Below, piece after piece: positions 29,998-36,251 of a stretch of 58,251 bases of DNA (within the stretch, counting starts at the first letter, position 1; each line of letters begins with the position of its first letter). The DNA is from an uncultured archaeon (GTDB lineage: Archaea; Thermoplasmatota; Poseidoniia; MGIII; CG-Epi1): NCBI GenBank assembly GCA_964651915.1, contig CAZYZI010000002.1, positions 1,559-59,809 of the forward strand, given 5' to 3'. Both the position numbers and the translations under genes were made by a program. The notes beneath the pieces are model-generated. The model saw only the letters and a list, made by a program, of their open reading frames with translations, did no database searches and was not told where the DNA came from.

Positions 29998-30134
29998 ATT
30001 ATAGCAAAAAGATGATATATTAAGGGTATACCTTTGCTTAAAAAAAAGTCATTTCCATTGCATATTTTTATATAGCAGATACCATCCTCTTGAAACACCT
30101 ATTATGGGGGCGTGATTTGTCTATACCTGACAAC

Positions 30135-30806
30135 ATGAATTACAGTCTGATGGCATTGCTGATTGTAACGGCACTACTAGTTGGCAAAAGTGCCCAAGGA
30201 TTTCCTAATGGAGGAGTAAGTGGTGGTGACGAATGGGCCGAAGATTCTATTGCACATGGGTGCTCATGCCACATGGATGAACAACTTAACGAAGGGATGT
30301 ATAATTTAAATGGAATTCCTGATAAATACGAACCTGAAAATACATATAATATTTCATTTGCTATTGCTGATGAAAATGTAGAAATGGCAGAAGATGCTTC
30401 TAGATATGGAGGGTTCTTAGCTGAAGTTAGTGAAGGAACCTTCGTAACAAATGAAAATTATTGGGTTGGGGGTGAAGGCTCTTACATCTCTCACAATGAT
30501 AACAGCAATGATGTAAGAAATTGGACATTTGAATGGACAGCTCCTGCAGATGGTACCGGTGATGCTATTTTCATAATATATTTCAACGTAGTTAATGGTC
30601 AAGGAACTAACGGAGACCAATGGAATTACTTGACTGCAGTTTCTCTTGGAACTCCGCAAGCTTCATCACATGAAATTTCAATACATGAACTTGGTGTAAC
30701 GCTGATGCAATACTGGATTGGATTAATGGGGATTGGAGTAGTTCTTTTATCTGTTCTGATTTCATACGTAGTAATGAGAGGAGGTAGTTCACATTACCGA
30801 GGTTAA
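30135..30806 (+). CDS. Secreted, C-terminally TM-anchored protein with HGCSCHM metal/heme-ligand-rich motif
   Basis: ATG 30135 gives the signal peptide MNYSLMALLIVTALLVGKSAQG (the ORF track starts at TTG 30090). FEWTAPADGTGDAIFIIYF beta-sandwich-like pattern. C-terminal TM plus basic tail. First gene of the Rieske/cyt b operon. Confidence 0.7.
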   Translation: MNYSLMALLIVTALLVGKSAQGFPNGGVSGGDEWAEDSIAHGCSCHMDEQLNEGMYNLNGIPDKYEPENTYNISFAIADENVEMAEDASRYGGFLAEVSEGTFVTNENYWVGGEGSYISHNDNSNDVRNWTFEWTAPADGTGDAIFIIYFNVVNGQGTNGDQWNYLTAVSLGTPQASSHEISIHELGVTLMQYWIGLMGIGVVLLSVLISYVVMRGGSSHYRG

Positions 30807-30957
30807 TGAAATACTGGAAAAGGTCTCCAGAGGAGAACTAACTGCAGAAGATGCCCAAAAAATATTAGGGACTTACAAGGATGAAGAATTAGGCAAAGAA
30901 TTAAGAAATATTCCTGGCAAAGAACAACTAGAAATATTTGCAATTATTTTAATATTT

Positions 30958-31158
30958 TTGCTTCTTGAATTAATGTATGATTCACTATTTATTTACGGAA
31001 TTATGGAAGGGTGGGACCAACCATTCTTGTCATTTATACTTGCTATGGCATTTTTGATTTTAGGGCTTATGCTCGATTTTTATAGAAGATCATTCATGCC
31101 TGATGTTCTTGAAACAAAGAAAAGAAGGAGGAAAGTTATCACAAAACTTGAACGTTAA
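30958..31158 (+). CDS. Small two-TM membrane protein (true start possibly upstream at 30793)
   Basis: TTG start in the track. The same frame is open and protein-like for 60 codons further upstream (see finding). Ends 2 nt before the Rieske gene. Confidence 0.55.
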   Translation: MLLELMYDSLFIYGIMEGWDQPFLSFILAMAFLILGLMLDFYRRSFMPDVLETKKRRRKVITKLER

Positions 31159-31160
31159 AT

Positions 31161-31838
31161 ATGAATATTACACGTAGAGGGTTCCTTCAAGGTGCAATTG
31201 GATTGGCTGGTGCTGGAATGACTGGAGCTCTAACTGTGCCTGCACTGAAAACTTTGTTGCCACCTCCAGTTACAAGATGTAACAAGGATGATGCACATGA
31301 AACTTTGACCTTCAAAGCAGAAGCTGGAAAATGGTATGAAAATAAAGGAAATGATGTAGCTAAAGTGTCGGATTTTGAAAATTTATGGGACGTTGCAATT
31401 GTCAATTGGGGTCCTTCTGACTTAGAAGAAGAGTTGGGTGTTTGTGAAATTCAGTTAGCTCTAGCAAGAGTTCCAACCGAAGATGGGATGGAGGGATTAG
31501 GTGTTAGTGTAGGTGATGGCAATTCAATGATAATGGCTTATCATACCTACAAATGTCCTCATTTATGCTGTAAACCAGTCTATACTGATGCTGGAACTAG
31601 TACAATTAGTGGAAAAGACTACGAAAATATGTTCTTGTGTCCATGCCATTTGTCTTTATTTGATCCAATTTCTATAATAAAAAATATAGATGAACAGGGC
31701 AGAGAAGTTATGGCTGCTGAATTATTAGAAGGACCTGCCCCTTATGGGCTACCAGTAGTACCTGTAGCTGAAAAAAATGGAGAATTGATAGGCCTAACTA
31801 CAAACATAGATTGGCTAAAATATTGCGGACAAGGTTGA
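31161..31838 (+). CDS. Rieske [2Fe-2S] protein, TAT-exported
   Basis: Twin-arginine signal MNITRRGFLQGAIGLAGAG. Cluster boxes CPHLCC and CPCHLSLF. Confidence 0.88.
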   Translation: MNITRRGFLQGAIGLAGAGMTGALTVPALKTLLPPPVTRCNKDDAHETLTFKAEAGKWYENKGNDVAKVSDFENLWDVAIVNWGPSDLEEELGVCEIQLALARVPTEDGMEGLGVSVGDGNSMIMAYHTYKCPHLCCKPVYTDAGTSTISGKDYENMFLCPCHLSLFDPISIIKNIDEQGREVMAAELLEGPAPYGLPVVPVAEKNGELIGLTTNIDWLKYCGQG

Positions 31839-31842
31839 TATT

Positions 31843-32805
31843 GTGAAGATTAACAAAATTATTATGATGGTTATAGGGTGTTTAGCCTTTTTCTCTTTGT
31901 CAGCTAGTGCTGAAACTCCACTTTTAGAAGAATTGATGAGAAAATATACTTTCCCATTCATTTTTCTTCAACTATTAATGGCTGTATTAACCGTAGGATA
32001 TCTATACGTGACTGGGTTGCTTCCAAAGGTAATCTTTGAAGCTTGGAAATGGGTTGATGAGAGGTTTGCACTACATAGATACATTTCCATGGCTAAAAGA
32101 GAATATTATTCTGTTGTATACACTATTTTACCTGCAACTGGAAGAACAATGCCACAATCGCACACTGAACGGTATAATGTCAAAGCTGTTTGGTATTGGT
32201 ATCCATTTTATTCATTGGGTGGTCTATCTTTCTTTGCTTATATTGTATTAACAATCACTGGAATTTATTTAGGATTTTATTATGTTCCTGATGGTGAATT
32301 TGTAAATGAAGATGGAGGACCTTGTGGTACTGGACACTGTACTTCTGGAGCTTACCAATCAATGGAATTAATTATGACTCAAGTAACATTTGGATACATT
32401 ATTCGGGCTGTACATCATTGGTCAGCTCACTTCATGGTTGCTTCAGTATTTCTTCACATGATGAGAGTTTATTTCATTGGAGCTTATAGAAATCCAAGAG
32501 AAGTTAATTGGATACTAGGATCCATTTTACTAATGGTAACTATATTTTTTGGTTATACTGGATATCTCTTGCCATGGGATGAACTTGGTTTTGCAGCAGG
32601 TTCAATTGGTCTTGAAATGGCAACTTCTATACCTGCAATGGGGCCATTAATGGCTCAAATAGTATTTGGCGGTACACAACTTACTGGAGATACAATTACT
32701 CGAATGTATTGGTTACACATTTTTGTACTTCCTTTGATAGGTACTGTTTTGATCATAATACACATGGCACTTGTATGGATACAAGGGGAGGCTGAACCTC
32801 ATTAG
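31843..32805 (+). CDS. Cytochrome b, N-terminal (b6-like) subunit
   Basis: GTG start. RAVHHWSAHFMVASVFLHMMR (H-x13-H) and WLHIFVLPLIGTVLIIIH (H-x14-H) heme ligand pairs. GYTGYLLPWDE motif. Confidence 0.9.
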   Translation: MKINKIIMMVIGCLAFFSLSASAETPLLEELMRKYTFPFIFLQLLMAVLTVGYLYVTGLLPKVIFEAWKWVDERFALHRYISMAKREYYSVVYTILPATGRTMPQSHTERYNVKAVWYWYPFYSLGGLSFFAYIVLTITGIYLGFYYVPDGEFVNEDGGPCGTGHCTSGAYQSMELIMTQVTFGYIIRAVHHWSAHFMVASVFLHMMRVYFIGAYRNPREVNWILGSILLMVTIFFGYTGYLLPWDELGFAAGSIGLEMATSIPAMGPLMAQIVFGGTQLTGDTITRMYWLHIFVLPLIGTVLIIIHMALVWIQGEAEPH

Positions 32806-33864
32806 ATGGGCGAAGACGATGATGCAATTGAAATGATTTATGAGCATCAAGATGAGCAAGTTGCACTTGATACGATAAATAAATTAGAAAATAGAGAGGA
32901 TCATTCTGTTCTCGAAGCCGACATGGTAAAAGGTGAACCCTTATATCCTCATGAATTAACCCGAGACGCAGTTCTTTCTTTGTACATTATGGCTTTATTT
33001 TTCTATTTAGCCGCTTTTGTACCTCCACCACTTCATGGTGCTGCAGATCCAACTGCAGGTACTGCATTCCCTCCACCTTTACCTGATTGGTATTTACTTT
33101 GGGCTTTTGGTTGTTTGAAAGTAGCTTGGGATATTAAAATTGGAATACCTCTCTCAATGATTCCATTTTTAGGTTTAGAAGATATTGAACTTTTCTTAAT
33201 GACTGCAAAAGTTTGGGGTACCTTAGTCCAAGGTTTGATTGTTGGATTAGTAGTTGGTGTACCCTTCATAGATAGAGCAATTGGATTCTTAATTGATCCA
33301 CAATATGGAGATGTTGTTAATAGAGGACATGAGCGGCGTCCAATCGAAGATCCTGTGAGGGCTGCAATTGGAGTATATGGTCTCGCATTAATGGTAATGT
33401 TATCTGTATATTCGATAAATGCTAACATTGCAATATATTATCCTGACATAACAACTGATATACTTAACCAACTAACTCTTTGGGGGCCTTTTGCTTGTGC
33501 ACTTATTACATTTGTTTTTCTGGATAGAAGAAGATCTGAAGGTGCTAAACCACTTACTGATGAAGAACGTTTCAGTCTATATGTAGATGGAATTAAAGAT
33601 CGAAGAATGCAACGAATATATGAATTCAAATTGAATCGTTGTTATCAATGTGGACTTTGTGATGATATTTGCCCAGTAAGAGATATGGAAGGTGAACACG
33701 AATTAAATATTATTTTTAATACATTCCAAAATGAACACGATGGTGTGGCTATGTGGTCATGCATTACATGTGGAATGTGTACTGCTGTTTGTCCGCAAAA
33801 CATTGAATACATTGATTATGTTTTAGAACAAAGAGCACTTACCACATCTGGAGCTTCAATATGA
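32806..33864 (+). CDS. Cytochrome b C-terminal (subunit IV-like) fused to 2x[4Fe-4S] ferredoxin (HdrC-like) domain
   Basis: Qo-site PDWY motif (PLPDWYLLWAF), four TM helices and a DRRRSEG positive patch. Then CYQCGLCDDICP and CITCGMCTAVCP. The start ATG immediately follows the cyt b stop. Confidence 0.85.
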   Translation: MGEDDDAIEMIYEHQDEQVALDTINKLENREDHSVLEADMVKGEPLYPHELTRDAVLSLYIMALFFYLAAFVPPPLHGAADPTAGTAFPPPLPDWYLLWAFGCLKVAWDIKIGIPLSMIPFLGLEDIELFLMTAKVWGTLVQGLIVGLVVGVPFIDRAIGFLIDPQYGDVVNRGHERRPIEDPVRAAIGVYGLALMVMLSVYSINANIAIYYPDITTDILNQLTLWGPFACALITFVFLDRRRSEGAKPLTDEERFSLYVDGIKDRRMQRIYEFKLNRCYQCGLCDDICPVRDMEGEHELNIIFNTFQNEHDGVAMWSCITCGMCTAVCPQNIEYIDYVLEQRALTTSGASI

Positions 33865-34748
33865 GCCGAACAAAACCCTACGCACGAACCATCCCGCATC
33901 CACTCTTCGAAAGGTTAATTGTCGAAGATGCAATGAATGAAGACAAAGAGTCTTGGAAACCTGAAAGACCGCACGAATATGGTTATTTTCCAGGATGTGT
34001 TGACTTTATGGATGTTGAAGTTAAATTTACTCATTTAAACAAAGGTGATGCGGATCATGCCTCTATAGCTGCAGCATCAATAAAATTATTGAATTATGCG
34101 AATATTGATCCCCTTATATTGGATATGAATATATTCAAATGTTCAGGACATGATCAATTATGGCAAGGACAATTAGAAGTATTTGATTCTTTGAAAGAAC
34201 ACAATATGAGAAGACTTAAAGAATCTGGAATTAAAATTATAACATGTTCATGTGCCGAATGCTATCGTACATTTGCTGTGGATTATGACCTTCCGGGTAC
34301 ATTAGGAATAAAAGTTGAACACATTACTCAAACTCTACAAGGGCGCGGATTGAAATTTAAAGCTCCTGAAGATGTAACTGTGGCTTACCATGATCCTTGT
34401 CGTTTAGGAAGAATGATGGGTGAATACGAAGCTCCAAGAGATTTGATAAATCTTGTAGATGGCGCTACCATGGTAGAGTTAGAGAATAACAAAGAACGAG
34501 CATTATGCTGTGGTGTTTCATCCATGATGTACTGTAATGACGCTACCAAAGCGGTTCGCAGAAAAAGATTAGACCAAGGAACTGATGCTGGAATTGATTT
34601 GATGCTAGGTGGGTGTCCTAAATGTTACATGCATATGCAATGTATGTTAAATGAAGAAAGAATGAATCCAGAAGAAAGTCACCACCATGACTATGAAATG
34701 ATGGATTTGATGCAATTCTTAGTTGCTTGCTTAGAGGAAGAAAAGTAG
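33861..34748 (+). CDS. CCG-domain Fe-S protein (HdrB/GlpC-like, two cysteine-rich CCG repeats)
   Basis: YFPGCVDFMD...KCSGHD...CSCAECY and YHDPCRLGR...LCCGVS...GGCPKCYMHMQC. ATGA overlap with the upstream gene. Confidence 0.85.
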   Translation: MSRTKPYARTIPHPLFERLIVEDAMNEDKESWKPERPHEYGYFPGCVDFMDVEVKFTHLNKGDADHASIAAASIKLLNYANIDPLILDMNIFKCSGHDQLWQGQLEVFDSLKEHNMRRLKESGIKIITCSCAECYRTFAVDYDLPGTLGIKVEHITQTLQGRGLKFKAPEDVTVAYHDPCRLGRMMGEYEAPRDLINLVDGATMVELENNKERALCCGVSSMMYCNDATKAVRRKRLDQGTDAGIDLMLGGCPKCYMHMQCMLNEERMNPEESHHHDYEMMDLMQFLVACLEEEK

Positions 34749-35737
34749 TGGCTGAAACAGATATTTCTGCATTTGTCTCGGAAGGAGATAGAAATCTCAA
34801 TATTTTATTTGGATCGCAAAGTGGAAATTCGGAAGGTCTTGCTGAAACTTGGGAACAAGAAGCTCCGCGGTATGGGCTCAAAGCAAAAGTTCACGACATG
34901 GATGGATTTGATATCAAATCAATGGCTAAGATGTCAAGAGTCATGATTGTTTGTTCAACATGGGGTGAAGGTGAAATGCCAGATAATGCCGAAGAGTTGT
35001 ATGAAGAGGCTAAAACTGCGGGTAAAATTTTATCTAAAACAAATTTTTCAATTTGCGCTCTTGGAGATACAGGATATGATTTATTCTGTCAATCTGGAAA
35101 AGATTGGGATAAGACGCTTGAAGAAATGGGCGGTTCAAGAATCCATGACCGTGTGGATTGTGATGTAGATTATGAAATGCCTGCTGAAAAATGGATGAAA
35201 GGTACAATGTCTAAGCTGGCCTGTGTGGATGGAGATGGAAAATTTCTCCCAGATTTAGTAGATGATATCGTTGCTTATGCCTCCGGTGTTGAACTTGAAA
35301 CACCAGAAGCTGAAGTGGAAGAACCTGTGGGAGGCACTACCGCTTACCAAGCTATGACTACGATTTCACTTTTCTTTCACAAACCCAACAAATGGCTCAA
35401 AAGAGTCAAAAATGTTCTTGATGAAGATGATTTACCAACAACTGGTATCGAAAAAGCAAAAGATATGTTCAAGGAATTGAGAAAAATTACTTTGAAGGCT
35501 TTGCCACAAGGTAAGGACTACATTGCGCTGGTAGATAATGAAAAATGTATCGGTTGTACTCAATGTGTTTATTATTGCAATTTTGCCTCAATAGACATGA
35601 TTTCTTGGGATTTAAATGCGAGAACATCACAATTTGAATCTAAGAAAGCTCTTGTTTTAGATGATACATGTGTCGGTTGTACTTTGTGTGCTTTTGCTTG
35701 CCCTGTAGAAGCAATAACTATGGAAAGTAAAGTTTAG
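34748..35737 (+). CDS. Flavodoxin-like FMN domain fused to 2x[4Fe-4S] ferredoxin domain
   Basis: ILFGSQSGNSEGLAE and ICALGDTGYDLFCQSG flavodoxin motifs. C-terminal CIGCTQCVYYCN and CVGCTLCAFACPVEA. The GTG at 34748 overlaps the upstream TAG by 1 nt; the track start 34727 is an alternative. Confidence 0.85.
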   Translation: MAETDISAFVSEGDRNLNILFGSQSGNSEGLAETWEQEAPRYGLKAKVHDMDGFDIKSMAKMSRVMIVCSTWGEGEMPDNAEELYEEAKTAGKILSKTNFSICALGDTGYDLFCQSGKDWDKTLEEMGGSRIHDRVDCDVDYEMPAEKWMKGTMSKLACVDGDGKFLPDLVDDIVAYASGVELETPEAEVEEPVGGTTAYQAMTTISLFFHKPNKWLKRVKNVLDEDDLPTTGIEKAKDMFKELRKITLKALPQGKDYIALVDNEKCIGCTQCVYYCNFASIDMISWDLNARTSQFESKKALVLDDTCVGCTLCAFACPVEAITMESKV

Positions 35738-35747
35738 AATCCGTATT

Positions 35748-36251
35748 ATGGATTTGTACAAATCAATCATTGCAGCAATATGGCTTTGTGTTGTTTATGC
35801 AATATGGGCTGCGACAGAAGCCGGGGATCCAGGATATGGACAAGCTTCATTTTTAGCTGGTGGAATTTTAGCTCATTTTTATCTAAGGAAAAGAAAATTA
35901 GAAAGGCCAAGGACTGATAGTAAAATTGCAATTCCTGAAGCTAATTTCTCTGTTGAAATACCTGATGAAGGTGACAAGTACTATTTTAGTGAAAATAGCT
36001 ATAGAAAAATCATATGGCTTAGTACTATTTTTTCATTAATTTCAATTAGTATCTTTATAGAAACTGTAACATATCAACAAGATTATTTAACTTGGGGAAT
36101 TATCGCATTAATATTTGGAACTGTAGTATTCTTAATTCCTATATTTTTACCTGTTAAAGATGATATTGAAACTTTAAAGAAAAGAGCTGAAAAAGAAAGA
36201 ACAAAGGCTTGGCATAAAGGTAAATTTGACCAGCCCATTGAGGAAGAGTGA
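35748..36251 (+). CDS. Membrane protein (4 TM) with charged C-terminal tail
   Basis: Hydrophobic helices. Follows the flavodoxin gene by 10 nt, and its stop overlaps the cca GTG start. Confidence 0.6.
   Translation: MDLYKSIIAAIWLCVVYAIWAATEAGDPGYGQASFLAGGILAHFYLRKRKLERPRTDSKIAIPEANFSVEIPDEGDKYYFSENSYRKIIWLSTIFSLISISIFIETVTYQQDYLTWGIIALIFGTVVFLIPIFLPVKDDIETLKKRAEKERTKAWHKGKFDQPIEEE

Follow-up and report, generated by a model that had tools for sequence, protein, structure and literature searches.

In a 58,251-nucleotide stretch of DNA from an uncultured archaeon of Marine Group III (MGIII; Thermoplasmatota, Poseidoniia, lineage CG-Epi1), a cluster of eight genes (a to h) very likely specifies a Rieske/cytochrome b core that is physically wired to an HdrD-like Fe-S module and to a further subunit, g, that combines a flavodoxin with a ferredoxin-like domain. 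The stretch, hereafter the window, covers positions 1,559 to 59,809 of the forward strand of contig CAZYZI010000002.1 (GenBank assembly GCA_964651915.1), and the cluster occupies positions 30135 to 36251 of it, all eight open reading frames (ORFs) lying in the same orientation on the plus strand (Table 1). Wiring of this kind, on the cytoplasmic side of the membrane, was the central claim of an earlier note on this DNA, and it is supported here by natural gene fusions, by gene order conserved across archaeal phyla and by a four-helix model of the fused subunit. Matches to Pfam and NCBIfam bore out the domain calls of that note, and the motifs to which it had drawn attention (HGCSCHM, the haem ligands, PDWY and DRRRSEG) were all located where it had placed them. 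As regards function, the reading that we favour, at a probability of about one half, is a Q-cycle complex into which ferredoxin or flavodoxin electrons would enter from the cytoplasmic (n) side.

The link between the cytochrome b part and the HdrD-like part is covalent in a number of archaea. A search of 1.8 billion representative proteins retrieved single chains that combine subunit IV (Cytochrom_B_C), Fer4 and two CCG domains (P0122, P0128, P0136, P0137 and P0139), and a follow-up search with P0136 yielded 1609 relatives, including proteins of 920-940 amino acids (aa) from Marine Group II (MGII). The lineages harboring such a chain comprise MGII, Thermoplasmata (here in a complete genome), Geothermarchaeales and another archaeal lineage. 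Because e (aa 26-211 and 266-349) followed by f (aa 6-295) aligns colinearly and end to start on the MGII fusion P0304, f covering its C-terminal third, residue 349 of e falling on position 615 and residue 6 of f on position 616, we regard e and f as a split HdrD, the split point of which is marked by the ATGA overlap at 33861. The statement of the earlier note that these two proteins together reconstitute an HdrD-like unit is thereby matched by natural chains exactly colinear with e then f. The e-type fusion, in turn, recurs at identities down to 62% in over 120 protein clusters, the sources of which are independent assemblies as well as single-cell genomes and fosmids; this rules out the assembly artefact that had been named as its possible refutation.

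Conservation of gene order, which the earlier note had put forward as a check, leads to the same picture. The order a to h is kept in all 37 species-level Poseidoniia genomes recovered, in which e is down to 61% identical; within MGIII alone this proves little, because the flanking housekeeping genes are equally syntenic. In all nine contexts of the fused protein that were read, its gene directly follows those for Rieske and cytochrome b and is itself followed by one for a ferredoxin-domain partner, the order being a small or DUF7318 protein, Rieske, cytochrome b, subunit IV-HdrD, a Fer4_21-type dicluster protein and, usually, a small membrane protein. The series Rieske - cytochrome b - fusion - partner holds even where the flanks differ entirely. 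Each gene of a-h has its orthologue in the MGII cluster, in the same order, and Thermoplasmata, Geothermarchaeales and an archaeon bearing HdrABC (locus L038) likewise possess the core; the partner that follows the HdrD module is a 126-aa ferredoxin in MGII and a Fer4+FlpD (MvhD-like) protein in the Thermoplasmata type. With the order recurring in 37 genomes, in MGII and in other phyla, and with covalent fusions in existence, adjacency by chance was rejected. Two of the distant loci carry additional redox genes. In L038 (4729-13487; GCA_964347835.1), HdrC, HdrB, HdrA and FlpD stand directly after subunit IV-HdrD, and multihaem cytochromes are also encoded; in L043 (123-10011; Geothermarchaeales), the genes after Rieske, cytochrome b and subunit IV-HdrD comprise an FrhB-like gene, HdrA, FlpD, a second HdrD-like gene and a GcvH-like gene. 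Judged by these gene neighbourhoods, the Q-cycle core is there linked to flavin-based bifurcation modules.

Protein e combines a weak match to the C-terminal half of QcrB (residues 39-212; 2.3e-6) with a 4Fe-4S dicluster at residues 275-335. Its Qo motif, PDWY (aa 93-96; 33082-33093), is of the PEWY type and invariant. The dicluster consists of two C-x2-C-x2-C-x3-C motifs of the HdrC kind (Cys 279/282/285/289 and 319/322/325/329), all eight cysteines being invariant in 38 diverse sequences, and matches to HdrC were indeed obtained. An AlphaFold2 model, built from 38 homologues, contains four transmembrane (TM) helices (aa 48-71, 134-163, 183-211 and 217-246; predicted local distance difference test (pLDDT) scores of ~70-92), and its best structural matches in Foldseek are the C-terminal half of actinobacterial QcrB and subunit IV of cytochrome b6f. 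As the number of helices is even, as a positive patch (DRRRSEG, 33523-33543) follows the last of them, and as Fe-S clusters are assembled in the cytoplasm, the natural reading of the model is that the Fe-S domain faces the n side, which is also the side of the N-terminus. This fits the cytoplasmic placement proposed in the earlier note.

Protein f is the most conserved product of the cluster, with 78-98% identity among 37 species genomes. Both of the CCG repeats reported earlier are present as domains; the second is canonical and complete (C180, C216-C217, C252, C255), while the first reads CSG and is non-canonical in this lineage (C46, C94-S95, C129, C131, C134), so that f lacks the two complete CCG motifs of HdrD and HdrBC. 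The best solved relative is mycobacterial EtfD (9ojn_A; 3.2e-14, versus 1.2e-4 for HdrB), which also matches the dicluster domain of e. In the alignment, C-S-G of f faces C-T-G of EtfD, f carries an extra cysteine (C-S-C-A-E-C), and H583 of EtfD, which completes cluster D2, corresponds to Glu133 of f (C-A-E-C), an invariant residue. EtfD moves electrons from the cytoplasmic electron-transfer flavoprotein (ETF) into the respiratory chain over a wire made of a linear [3Fe-4S] cluster (D1), a non-cubane [4Fe-4S] cluster (D2) and two cubanes (D3 and D4), with a b haem 7 Å away and then menaquinone; the C-T-G of its first CCG domain has been linked by the authors to a non-catalytic, solvent-shielded and oxygen-tolerant cluster (PMC13083937). 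EMO of Syntrophus, the second solved system, passes electrons from a flavin carrier over non-cubane clusters and b haems to quinone. Among the relatives of f, the first CCG domain (34140-34262 in the window) displays three patterns: (i) C-S-G with C-S-C-A-E-C in the window, in most of MGIII and in CG-Bathy1, one locus having C-T-G; (ii) C-C-G with T-C-A-E-G in an MGIII clade (L027-L031 and L037); and (iii) the canonical C-C-G with C-A-E-C in MGII, L038, L043 and L044. The variant patterns suggest a remodelled cluster coordination, as in the linear [3Fe-4S] cluster of EtfD.

Protein g starts with a flavodoxin domain (aa 26-151; Flavodoxin_1, 99.3 bits against a cut-off of 25; CysJ domain for flavin mononucleotide (FMN) in NCBIfam, 3.5e-39), in which the FMN phosphate loop GSQSGNSEG is visible, and ends with a dicluster domain (Cys 274-284 and 315-325). 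The latter resembles RnfB below the family threshold (rnfB, 1.5e-10; TIGR01944, 40.9 bits versus a cut-off of 68.7), and no Rnf genes that could serve as partners occur in the window. The flavodoxin-ferredoxin make-up claimed for g is thus real, but the flavodoxin turned out not to be the conserved part of the system. No more than about half of the MGIII genomes have it; the others hold in its place a different domain with two Fe-S motifs, which matches the Zn-7Fe ferredoxins 1xer and 2vkr (Sulfolobus tokodaii and Acidianus ambivalens; E = 5e-27). This form is exemplified by L005 (7916-8300), L033 (7943-8330) and L027 (7925-8300), the flavodoxin of the window occupying 34727-35250. The two forms are interleaved among close relatives: L002, the e protein of which is 90% identical to that of the window, has the ferredoxin, and L001 has the flavodoxin, like the window. 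In either form, a variable acidic linker rich in Thr and Pro comes next, then a helical segment that is conserved and, at the C-terminus, the RnfB-like dicluster domain. Only this C-terminal part is shared with MGII, where the 126-aa ferredoxin (L040, 9768-10148) is its orthologue at 38% identity. Since the flavodoxin is replaced by a 7Fe ferredoxin in about half of the MGIII relatives, g is best described, from its domain composition, as an anchoring dicluster domain with a tethered, exchangeable, low-potential one-electron carrier. In aerobic archaea, it is classically ferredoxins of the Sulfolobus 7Fe type that accept electrons from 2-oxoacid:ferredoxin oxidoreductases, and the exchange of ferredoxin for flavodoxin is a classical iron-sparing substitution in marine microbes. 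The flavodoxin appears to be the derived state, because two basal MGIII clades carry the ferredoxin form, and it may possibly represent such an iron-sparing swap.

By its sequence, the core of the locus belongs to the Rieske/cytochrome b superfamily and is not a canonical b6f, HdrDE or EtfD. Cytochrome b protein d finds its best Protein Data Bank (PDB) match in cytochrome b6 of Chlamydomonas (1q90_B; 1.4e-37) and has all four histidine ligands, H191/H205 (H-x13-H) and H292/H307 (H-x14-H). At the site of the haem ci cysteine, d reads FYSLGG (32206-32223) against FYCIGG in 1q90_B, i.e. Cys35 is replaced by Ser. MGII (L040), the Thermoplasmata relative L042 and deep MGIII clades (L027-L031, L033, L034 and L037) have the cysteine where the clade of the window has Ser, so that the ancestral complex probably had haem ci. 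Before helix A, d has an N-terminal extension of ~110 aa (31843-32170) that contains a signal-peptide-like segment and an extra TM helix; in the Thermoplasmata relatives L042 and L045-L047, this extension is a Big_5 ectodomain of ~600 aa. The p-side A-B loop of d holds a 16-residue insertion with two cysteines (DGEFVNEDGGPCGTGHCTSG, 32290-32340). Protein c scores below the curated cut-offs (Pfam, 13.5 versus 20.3 bits; TIGRFAM, 32.7 versus 97.4), and it was recognised by its twin-arginine translocation (TAT) signal and two cluster boxes, the boxes being conserved in all relatives. We take it as a divergent member of the Rieske family; the TAT-exported Rieske protein of the earlier note therefore stands as to signal and boxes, with sub-threshold profile scores.

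No protein with a CxxCH motif is encoded in the cluster, which means that a dedicated acceptor of the cytochrome c1, cytochrome f or di-haem c type is absent from it. Protein a, the orthologue of which holds the same position in MGII, carries HGCSCHM at 30255-30275; G-C-x-C-H is invariant among the relatives and reads G-C-L-C-H in MGII. Its AlphaFold2 model, in which the motif loop is poorly modelled, matches in Foldseek only Reeler/Ig-like beta-sandwiches such as the reeler domain of F-spondin; there was no sequence match in the PDB and no cofactor could be assigned. We consider protein a the probable candidate for a p-side electron acceptor that replaces a c-type cytochrome. A segment at its membrane interface, IHE.GV..MQYWI (30681-30720), is likewise invariant, and in L038 the place of protein a is taken by a multihaem cytochrome c.

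Put together, these components would form the complex III of Poseidoniia, a Rieske/cytochrome b quinol oxidase running a Q cycle and built of the Rieske protein c, the b6-type cytochrome b d, subunit IV (e) and the small membrane subunits b and h, with protein a or another carrier that is not a cytochrome c as the acceptor on the p side. The added fourth TM helix of subunit IV would place the HdrD-like wire, made of the two cubane clusters of e and the CCG-domain clusters of f, on the n side near haem bH and the Qi site. Subunit g would dock on this wire via its RnfB-like dicluster and would hold, on the flexible acidic linker, a mobile carrier domain, namely flavodoxin in the window lineage and the Sulfolobus-type 7Fe ferredoxin in the ancestral form. 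Once reduced by cytoplasmic ferredoxin-dependent enzymes, e.g. 2-oxoacid:ferredoxin oxidoreductases, the tethered carrier would deliver its electrons first to the diclusters of g, then over the CCG clusters of f and lastly over the cubanes of e, and at haem bH/Qi quinone would be reduced with proton uptake from the cytoplasm; oxidation of the quinol at Qo would follow, as in an ordinary Q cycle. In this way, one complex would serve both as the quinol oxidase and as the entry point of ferredoxin or flavodoxin electrons into the respiratory chain.

Ferredoxins have potentials of about -400 mV or lower. Values of -80 mV for menaquinone and -143 mV for the heterodisulfide have been given (PMC4683180). 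We favour an inlet because (i) transfer from ferredoxin to menaquinone is strongly downhill, (ii) EtfD and EMO, the solved HdrD-like membrane modules, both work as inlets, (iii) flavodoxin and ferredoxin, which are low-potential one-electron carriers, are interchanged in g, (iv) the first CCG domain of f is of the EtfD-like, aerobic-type variant, which we read as an oxygen-tolerant, non-catalytic wire, (v) for MGII, a complex III of non-canonical type has been reported together with an orphan RnfB, RnfACDEG being absent (PMC6336850), and (vi) a published remark on a related locus of Angelarchaeales proposes ferredoxin entry (PMC9038741). The 'orphan RnfB' is probably explained by the MGII orthologue of g, i.e. 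the 126-aa ferredoxin.

Several points weigh against such an inlet. The window encodes neither ferredoxin-dependent enzymes nor a terminal oxidase. Poseidoniia are thought to have a complex I devoid of NuoEFG and able to oxidise ferredoxin, so that a second inlet is not obviously required. The haem ci cysteine, which in b6f is tied to ferredoxin-driven cyclic flow, has been lost in the window lineage, and the Fe-S domain of e is modelled with low confidence (pLDDT < 50 for residues 265-335). The cluster chemistry of f may differ from that of EtfD, because the histidine of D2 is replaced by glutamate. Outside MGIII, moreover, both CCG motifs are complete in the family consensus, as they are in catalytic Hdr, and in anaerobic relatives the module stands beside HdrABC, FlpD or FrhB genes, a setting that would equally suit disulfide chemistry or flavin-based bifurcation.

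The architecture permits electron flow in either direction, a choice that the earlier note had not made, and the same wire could thus export the low-potential electron of the Q cycle. The first electron from Qo would then go to the Rieske centre and on to oxygen, and the second, bypassing quinone reduction at Qi, would leave bL/bH through e, f and g and reduce the tethered carrier or a partner enzyme for biosynthesis. The coupling of the module to bifurcation-type HdrA, FlpD/MvhD and FrhB in relatives agrees with this, and a changed function of the Qi site could lie behind the loss of the haem ci cysteine. In anammox bacteria, Rieske/cytochrome b complexes that have cytoplasmic NAD(P)-linked subunits are said to act so, Kartal et al. 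in 2013 and de Almeida et al. in 2016 reportedly having proposed that they bifurcate. We regard such an export as the strongest rival of the inlet, possible if somewhat unlikely. With menaquinol at ~-80 mV and a Rieske centre at +100 to +150 mV, the second electron would, by our estimate, emerge at ~-300 mV before the cost of the membrane potential, a marginal value if flavodoxin hydroquinone or a reduced ferredoxin of the 7Fe or 2x[4Fe-4S] kind is to be produced; an aerobic heterotroph equipped with ferredoxin-producing 2-oxoacid oxidoreductases has little obvious need for it; and the precedents EtfD and EMO run inward. A quinone-based bifurcation with a soluble low-potential output, in which a carrier or a disulfide would be reduced at the expense of an O2-linked branch in the window lineage and with coupling to HdrA/FlpD in anaerobic relatives, is in our view unlikely.

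Genuine disulfide chemistry is less probable still. In a disulfide (or polysulfide/thiol) oxidoreductase mounted on complex III, resembling HdrDE and DsrMK yet driven by Qo bifurcation when reducing, the CCG clusters of f would reduce a disulfide with electrons from bH, or would oxidise thiols into Qi. The C-terminus of e together with f is homologous to HdrC/HdrB, HdrD, TfrB, DsrK and GlpC; the second CCG motif is canonical here and both motifs are canonical outside MGIII; the neighbours in anaerobes include HdrABC, the further HdrD-like gene and the GcvH-like (lipoyl-carrier-like) gene; and the heterodisulfide potential of -143 mV would be reachable in either direction. In the window lineage, however, the first motif is C-S-G, and the matching C-T-G of EtfD cannot hold a catalytic non-cubane cluster, while the second MGIII clade has another four-cysteine variant of the same motif. 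MGIII are, to our knowledge, not methanogens, and we know of no disulfide substrate for them; the conserved ferredoxin-domain partner and the flavodoxin/ferredoxin swap would also be left unexplained. A locus without any bulk role in electron flow, i.e. a redox sensor, an assembly or repair factor, a safety valve for bH or mere adjacency in a compact, syntenic genome, is very improbable, even though the flanking housekeeping genes are as syntenic within MGIII as the cluster itself, an unrelated gene overlaps h, and the Fe-S domain of e is poorly modelled. Against it stand the covalent subunit IV-HdrD fusion in several phyla, the order of Rieske, cytochrome b, fusion and ferredoxin-type partner that persists between completely different flanks, the very strong purifying selection on f and the invariance of the eight cubane-cluster cysteines.

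The locus shares with the b6f and Firmicute bc complexes a split cytochrome b (four-helix, b6-like d plus subunit IV), a Rieske protein, the H-x14-H spacing in helix D and a PEWY-type motif; the haem ci cysteine of MGII, of the deep MGIII clades and of L042 is also b6f-like, in contrast to the Ser of the window lineage. Unlike that of b6f, subunit IV is predicted to have four TM helices rather than three and is fused to a cytoplasmic Fe-S domain, and cytochromes f and c1 are both missing, the Reeler-like protein and the DUF7318 subunit standing in those positions. Entry of ferredoxin electrons on the n side is an old proposal for b6f and its cyclic flow. The subunit IV fusion of Bacillus QcrC carries a p-side cytochrome c, whereas the extra helix of e turns the fused domain to the n side.

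With EtfD, the locus has in common a first CCG motif without its second cysteine (C-S-G versus C-T-G) as well as two CCG-domain clusters and two cubanes, which here, too, would lead to b haem and quinone; a cytoplasmic flavin carrier as donor would be shared with EtfD and EMO alike. The membrane partner of those enzymes is a NarI/HdrE-like haem b domain and their donor a free ETF; here the partner is a Rieske/cytochrome b Q-cycle unit, joined through subunit IV, and the donor would be a tethered flavodoxin or ferredoxin. No ETF genes were found in the cluster or the rest of the window. In HdrDE and DsrMK, too, an HdrD-type module is mounted on the cytoplasmic side of a membrane protein with two haems, which communicates with a quinone or phenazine pool, but the partner in the present case is the b6-type d with subunit IV and Rieske instead of a NarI/HdrE-type b-cytochrome, the first CCG motif is non-canonical and there is no known disulfide substrate in this organism. 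The anammox complexes reportedly resemble the locus in having extra cytoplasmic redox subunits on a Q-cycle core, for which Qo bifurcation has been proposed; they are bacterial, their added subunits are said to be FAD/NAD-binding and multihaem proteins, and they would have neither a CCG module nor a subunit IV fusion. The Rieske/cytochrome b complex of Methanoperedens, which also has extra subunits, shows no link to HdrD (PMC4683180). HdrD-like matches from that organism (P0344) were rejected as relatives, as they represent soluble HdrD beside HdrCBA/FlpD, without Rieske or cytochrome b.

Taken singly, Rieske/cytochrome b cores, HdrD-like modules on b-haem membrane proteins and flavodoxin or ferredoxin carriers are known modules. 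The earlier note had called their combination undescribed, which is nearly correct: the sole mention found is one passing sentence in Diamond et al. 2022 on hdrD-like and rnfB-like genes beside complex III in Ca. Angelarchaeales, with the proposal of ferredoxin entry mentioned above (PMC9038741). The locus concerned appears to be of the same family as a-h, and in the passages concerned neither the subunit IV fusion nor the wider distribution is discussed. The loci L042 and L045-L047, which we provisionally take as Angelarchaeales-type (L042 as a presumed Angelarchaeales genome), have the order DUF7318 - Rieske - cytochrome b - subunit IV/HdrD fusion - Fer4+FlpD - small protein. They differ from a-h in that e and f form one polypeptide, cytochrome b bears the Big_5 ectodomain and the partner has an FlpD/MvhD domain. 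In the searchable literature, which did not cover subscription reviews on the evolution of Rieske/cytochrome b complexes, no description was found of (i) the subunit IV-HdrD fusion via a fourth helix, (ii) the distribution over Poseidoniia, Thermoplasmata and Thermoproteota, or (iii) the tethered carrier subunit and its flavodoxin/ferredoxin swap. The complex is a widely distributed and essentially unstudied archaeal respiratory variant.

The eight plus-strand genes and the junctions quoted in the earlier note were all seen in an ORF check: the stop of b at 31158 is followed by the ATG of c at 31161, that of c at 31838 by the GTG of d at 31843 and that of d at 32805 by the ATG of e at 32806, and e and f overlap by ATGA (33861-33864). 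The stop of f lies at 34748, and g starts at either TTG 34727 or GTG 34748. Tight junctions are weak functional evidence here, because the GTG start of the unrelated cca gene (CCA-adding enzyme) likewise falls inside the end of h, which gives an overlap of 4 nt (36248-36251); in this compact genome they were discounted as a sign of function. Being adjacent, cca, a tRNA-maturation gene, may be co-transcribed with the respiratory operon, and the h-cca spacing varies in relatives. Protein h has no family match in Pfam or NCBIfam, and its MGII orthologue is a 100-aa protein; the four TM helices ascribed to it earlier are amended to three or four hydrophobic segments, its nature as a membrane protein being upheld.

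The extent previously given for gene b was too short. The mechanical ORF begins at TTG 30958, but its frame is open from 30778 and overlaps the 3' end of gene a (stop 30804-30806) in the +1 frame. The N-terminal peptide encoded there (ITEVNEILEKV...) is kept in 36 relatives, and the lengthened product fits DUF7318 better. No ATG, GTG or TTG occurs at a consistent position and the preceding residue varies, whereas the Ile codon at 30793 is ATT in 37/37 MGIII sequences and is preceded, 7 nt upstream and within the last codons of a, by a strong Shine-Dalgarno-like GGAGG (GGAGGT, 30780-30785). Gene b most likely begins at this conserved AUU start codon. We rank below it a programmed +1 frameshift from a, as the MGII orthologue of b is an independent gene with an ATG start and an ATGA overlap with a.

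The G+C content of the window is 36-37%. Besides the cluster, it encodes housekeeping functions (aconitase, FolD, ABCE1, CTP synthase, type IV pilus systems and ribosomal protein S15), a thioredoxin-reductase-like flavoprotein, the CCA-adding enzyme and surface proteins; no oxidase, 2-oxoacid:ferredoxin oxidoreductase, Nuo or other respiratory gene was found elsewhere in the window. The genomes nearest to the window by protein e are metagenome-assembled genomes (MAGs) and single-cell genomes that bear the label Poseidoniia or MGIII, CG-Epi1 and CG-Bathy1 being among the latter, and the UniRef names of near-identical proteins refer to fosmids of 'marine group II/III euryarchaeote'. The MGIII cluster also occurs, 81-87% identical, on two contigs, L009 (CAXGWP010000033.1) and L024 (NZTZ01000011.1), that belong to MAGs with the labels 'Nitrosomonadaceae bacterium' and 'Chloroflexota bacterium', respectively, which is most likely due to mis-binning; two further cluster-bearing MAGs carry the label Thalassarchaeaceae.

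Table 1. Features of the cluster, in window coordinates.
Feature	Position	Strand	Basis or remark
Candidate archaeal TATA box (TTTATATA)	30067..30074	+	~60 nt upstream of the gene a ATG; sequence inspection only
a, signal peptide, Reeler-like beta-sandwich ectodomain and C-terminal TM anchor	30135..30806	+	NCBIfam choice_anch_V 7.5e-21
b, DUF7318 membrane protein, 121 aa from the likely ATT start	30793..31158	+	Pfam DUF7318 2.3e-13; SHOCT-like N-terminus
c, TAT-exported Rieske [2Fe-2S] protein	31161..31838	+	RRGF 31173-31184; CPHLCC 31554-31571; CPCH 31638-31649
d, b6-type cytochrome b, helices A-D	31843..32805	+	Pfam Cytochrom_B_N_2 1.4e-37
e, subunit IV (cytochrome b C-terminal half) with HdrC-like 2x[4Fe-4S] domain	32806..33864	+	Pfam/NCBIfam, AlphaFold2, Foldseek
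f, HdrB/HdrD-type protein with two CCG domains	33861..34748	+	Pfam CCG x2 2.8e-18; TfrB C-terminal half 1e-25
g, flavodoxin (FMN) domain, acidic linker and RnfB-like 2x[4Fe-4S] domain	34727..35737	+	Flavodoxin_1 2.8e-28; Fer4_21 2.2e-14
h, small membrane protein, 3-4 hydrophobic segments	35748..36251	+	Kept at cluster end

Marine Groups II and III, which count with the most abundant ocean heterotrophs, have no cultured member. Genome surveys in print call their complex III no more than 'non-canonical' and leave the orphan RnfB unexplained (PMC6336850). The locus analysed here indicates of what nature the complex III of Poseidoniia is, namely a Q-cycle core with a covalent HdrD-like wire and a ferredoxin/flavodoxin subunit. 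Provided that the wire works as an inlet, it would explain how ferredoxin reduced by 2-oxoacid oxidoreductases is re-oxidised with conservation of energy, it would provide a hard-wired natural case of the n-side electron injection into a Rieske/cytochrome b complex that has long been debated for b6f cyclic flow, and the change from 7Fe ferredoxin to flavodoxin in some MGIII would be an iron-sparing one inside a respiratory complex. Should the bifurcating alternative prove true, this would be the first Q-cycle bifurcation harvested as cytoplasmic reducing power, and that in very abundant ocean archaea. Overall, the family ties Rieske/cytochrome b complexes to the HdrABC/FlpD/FrhB modules of anaerobic archaea, and thereby bears on the evolution of both kinds of electron bifurcation.

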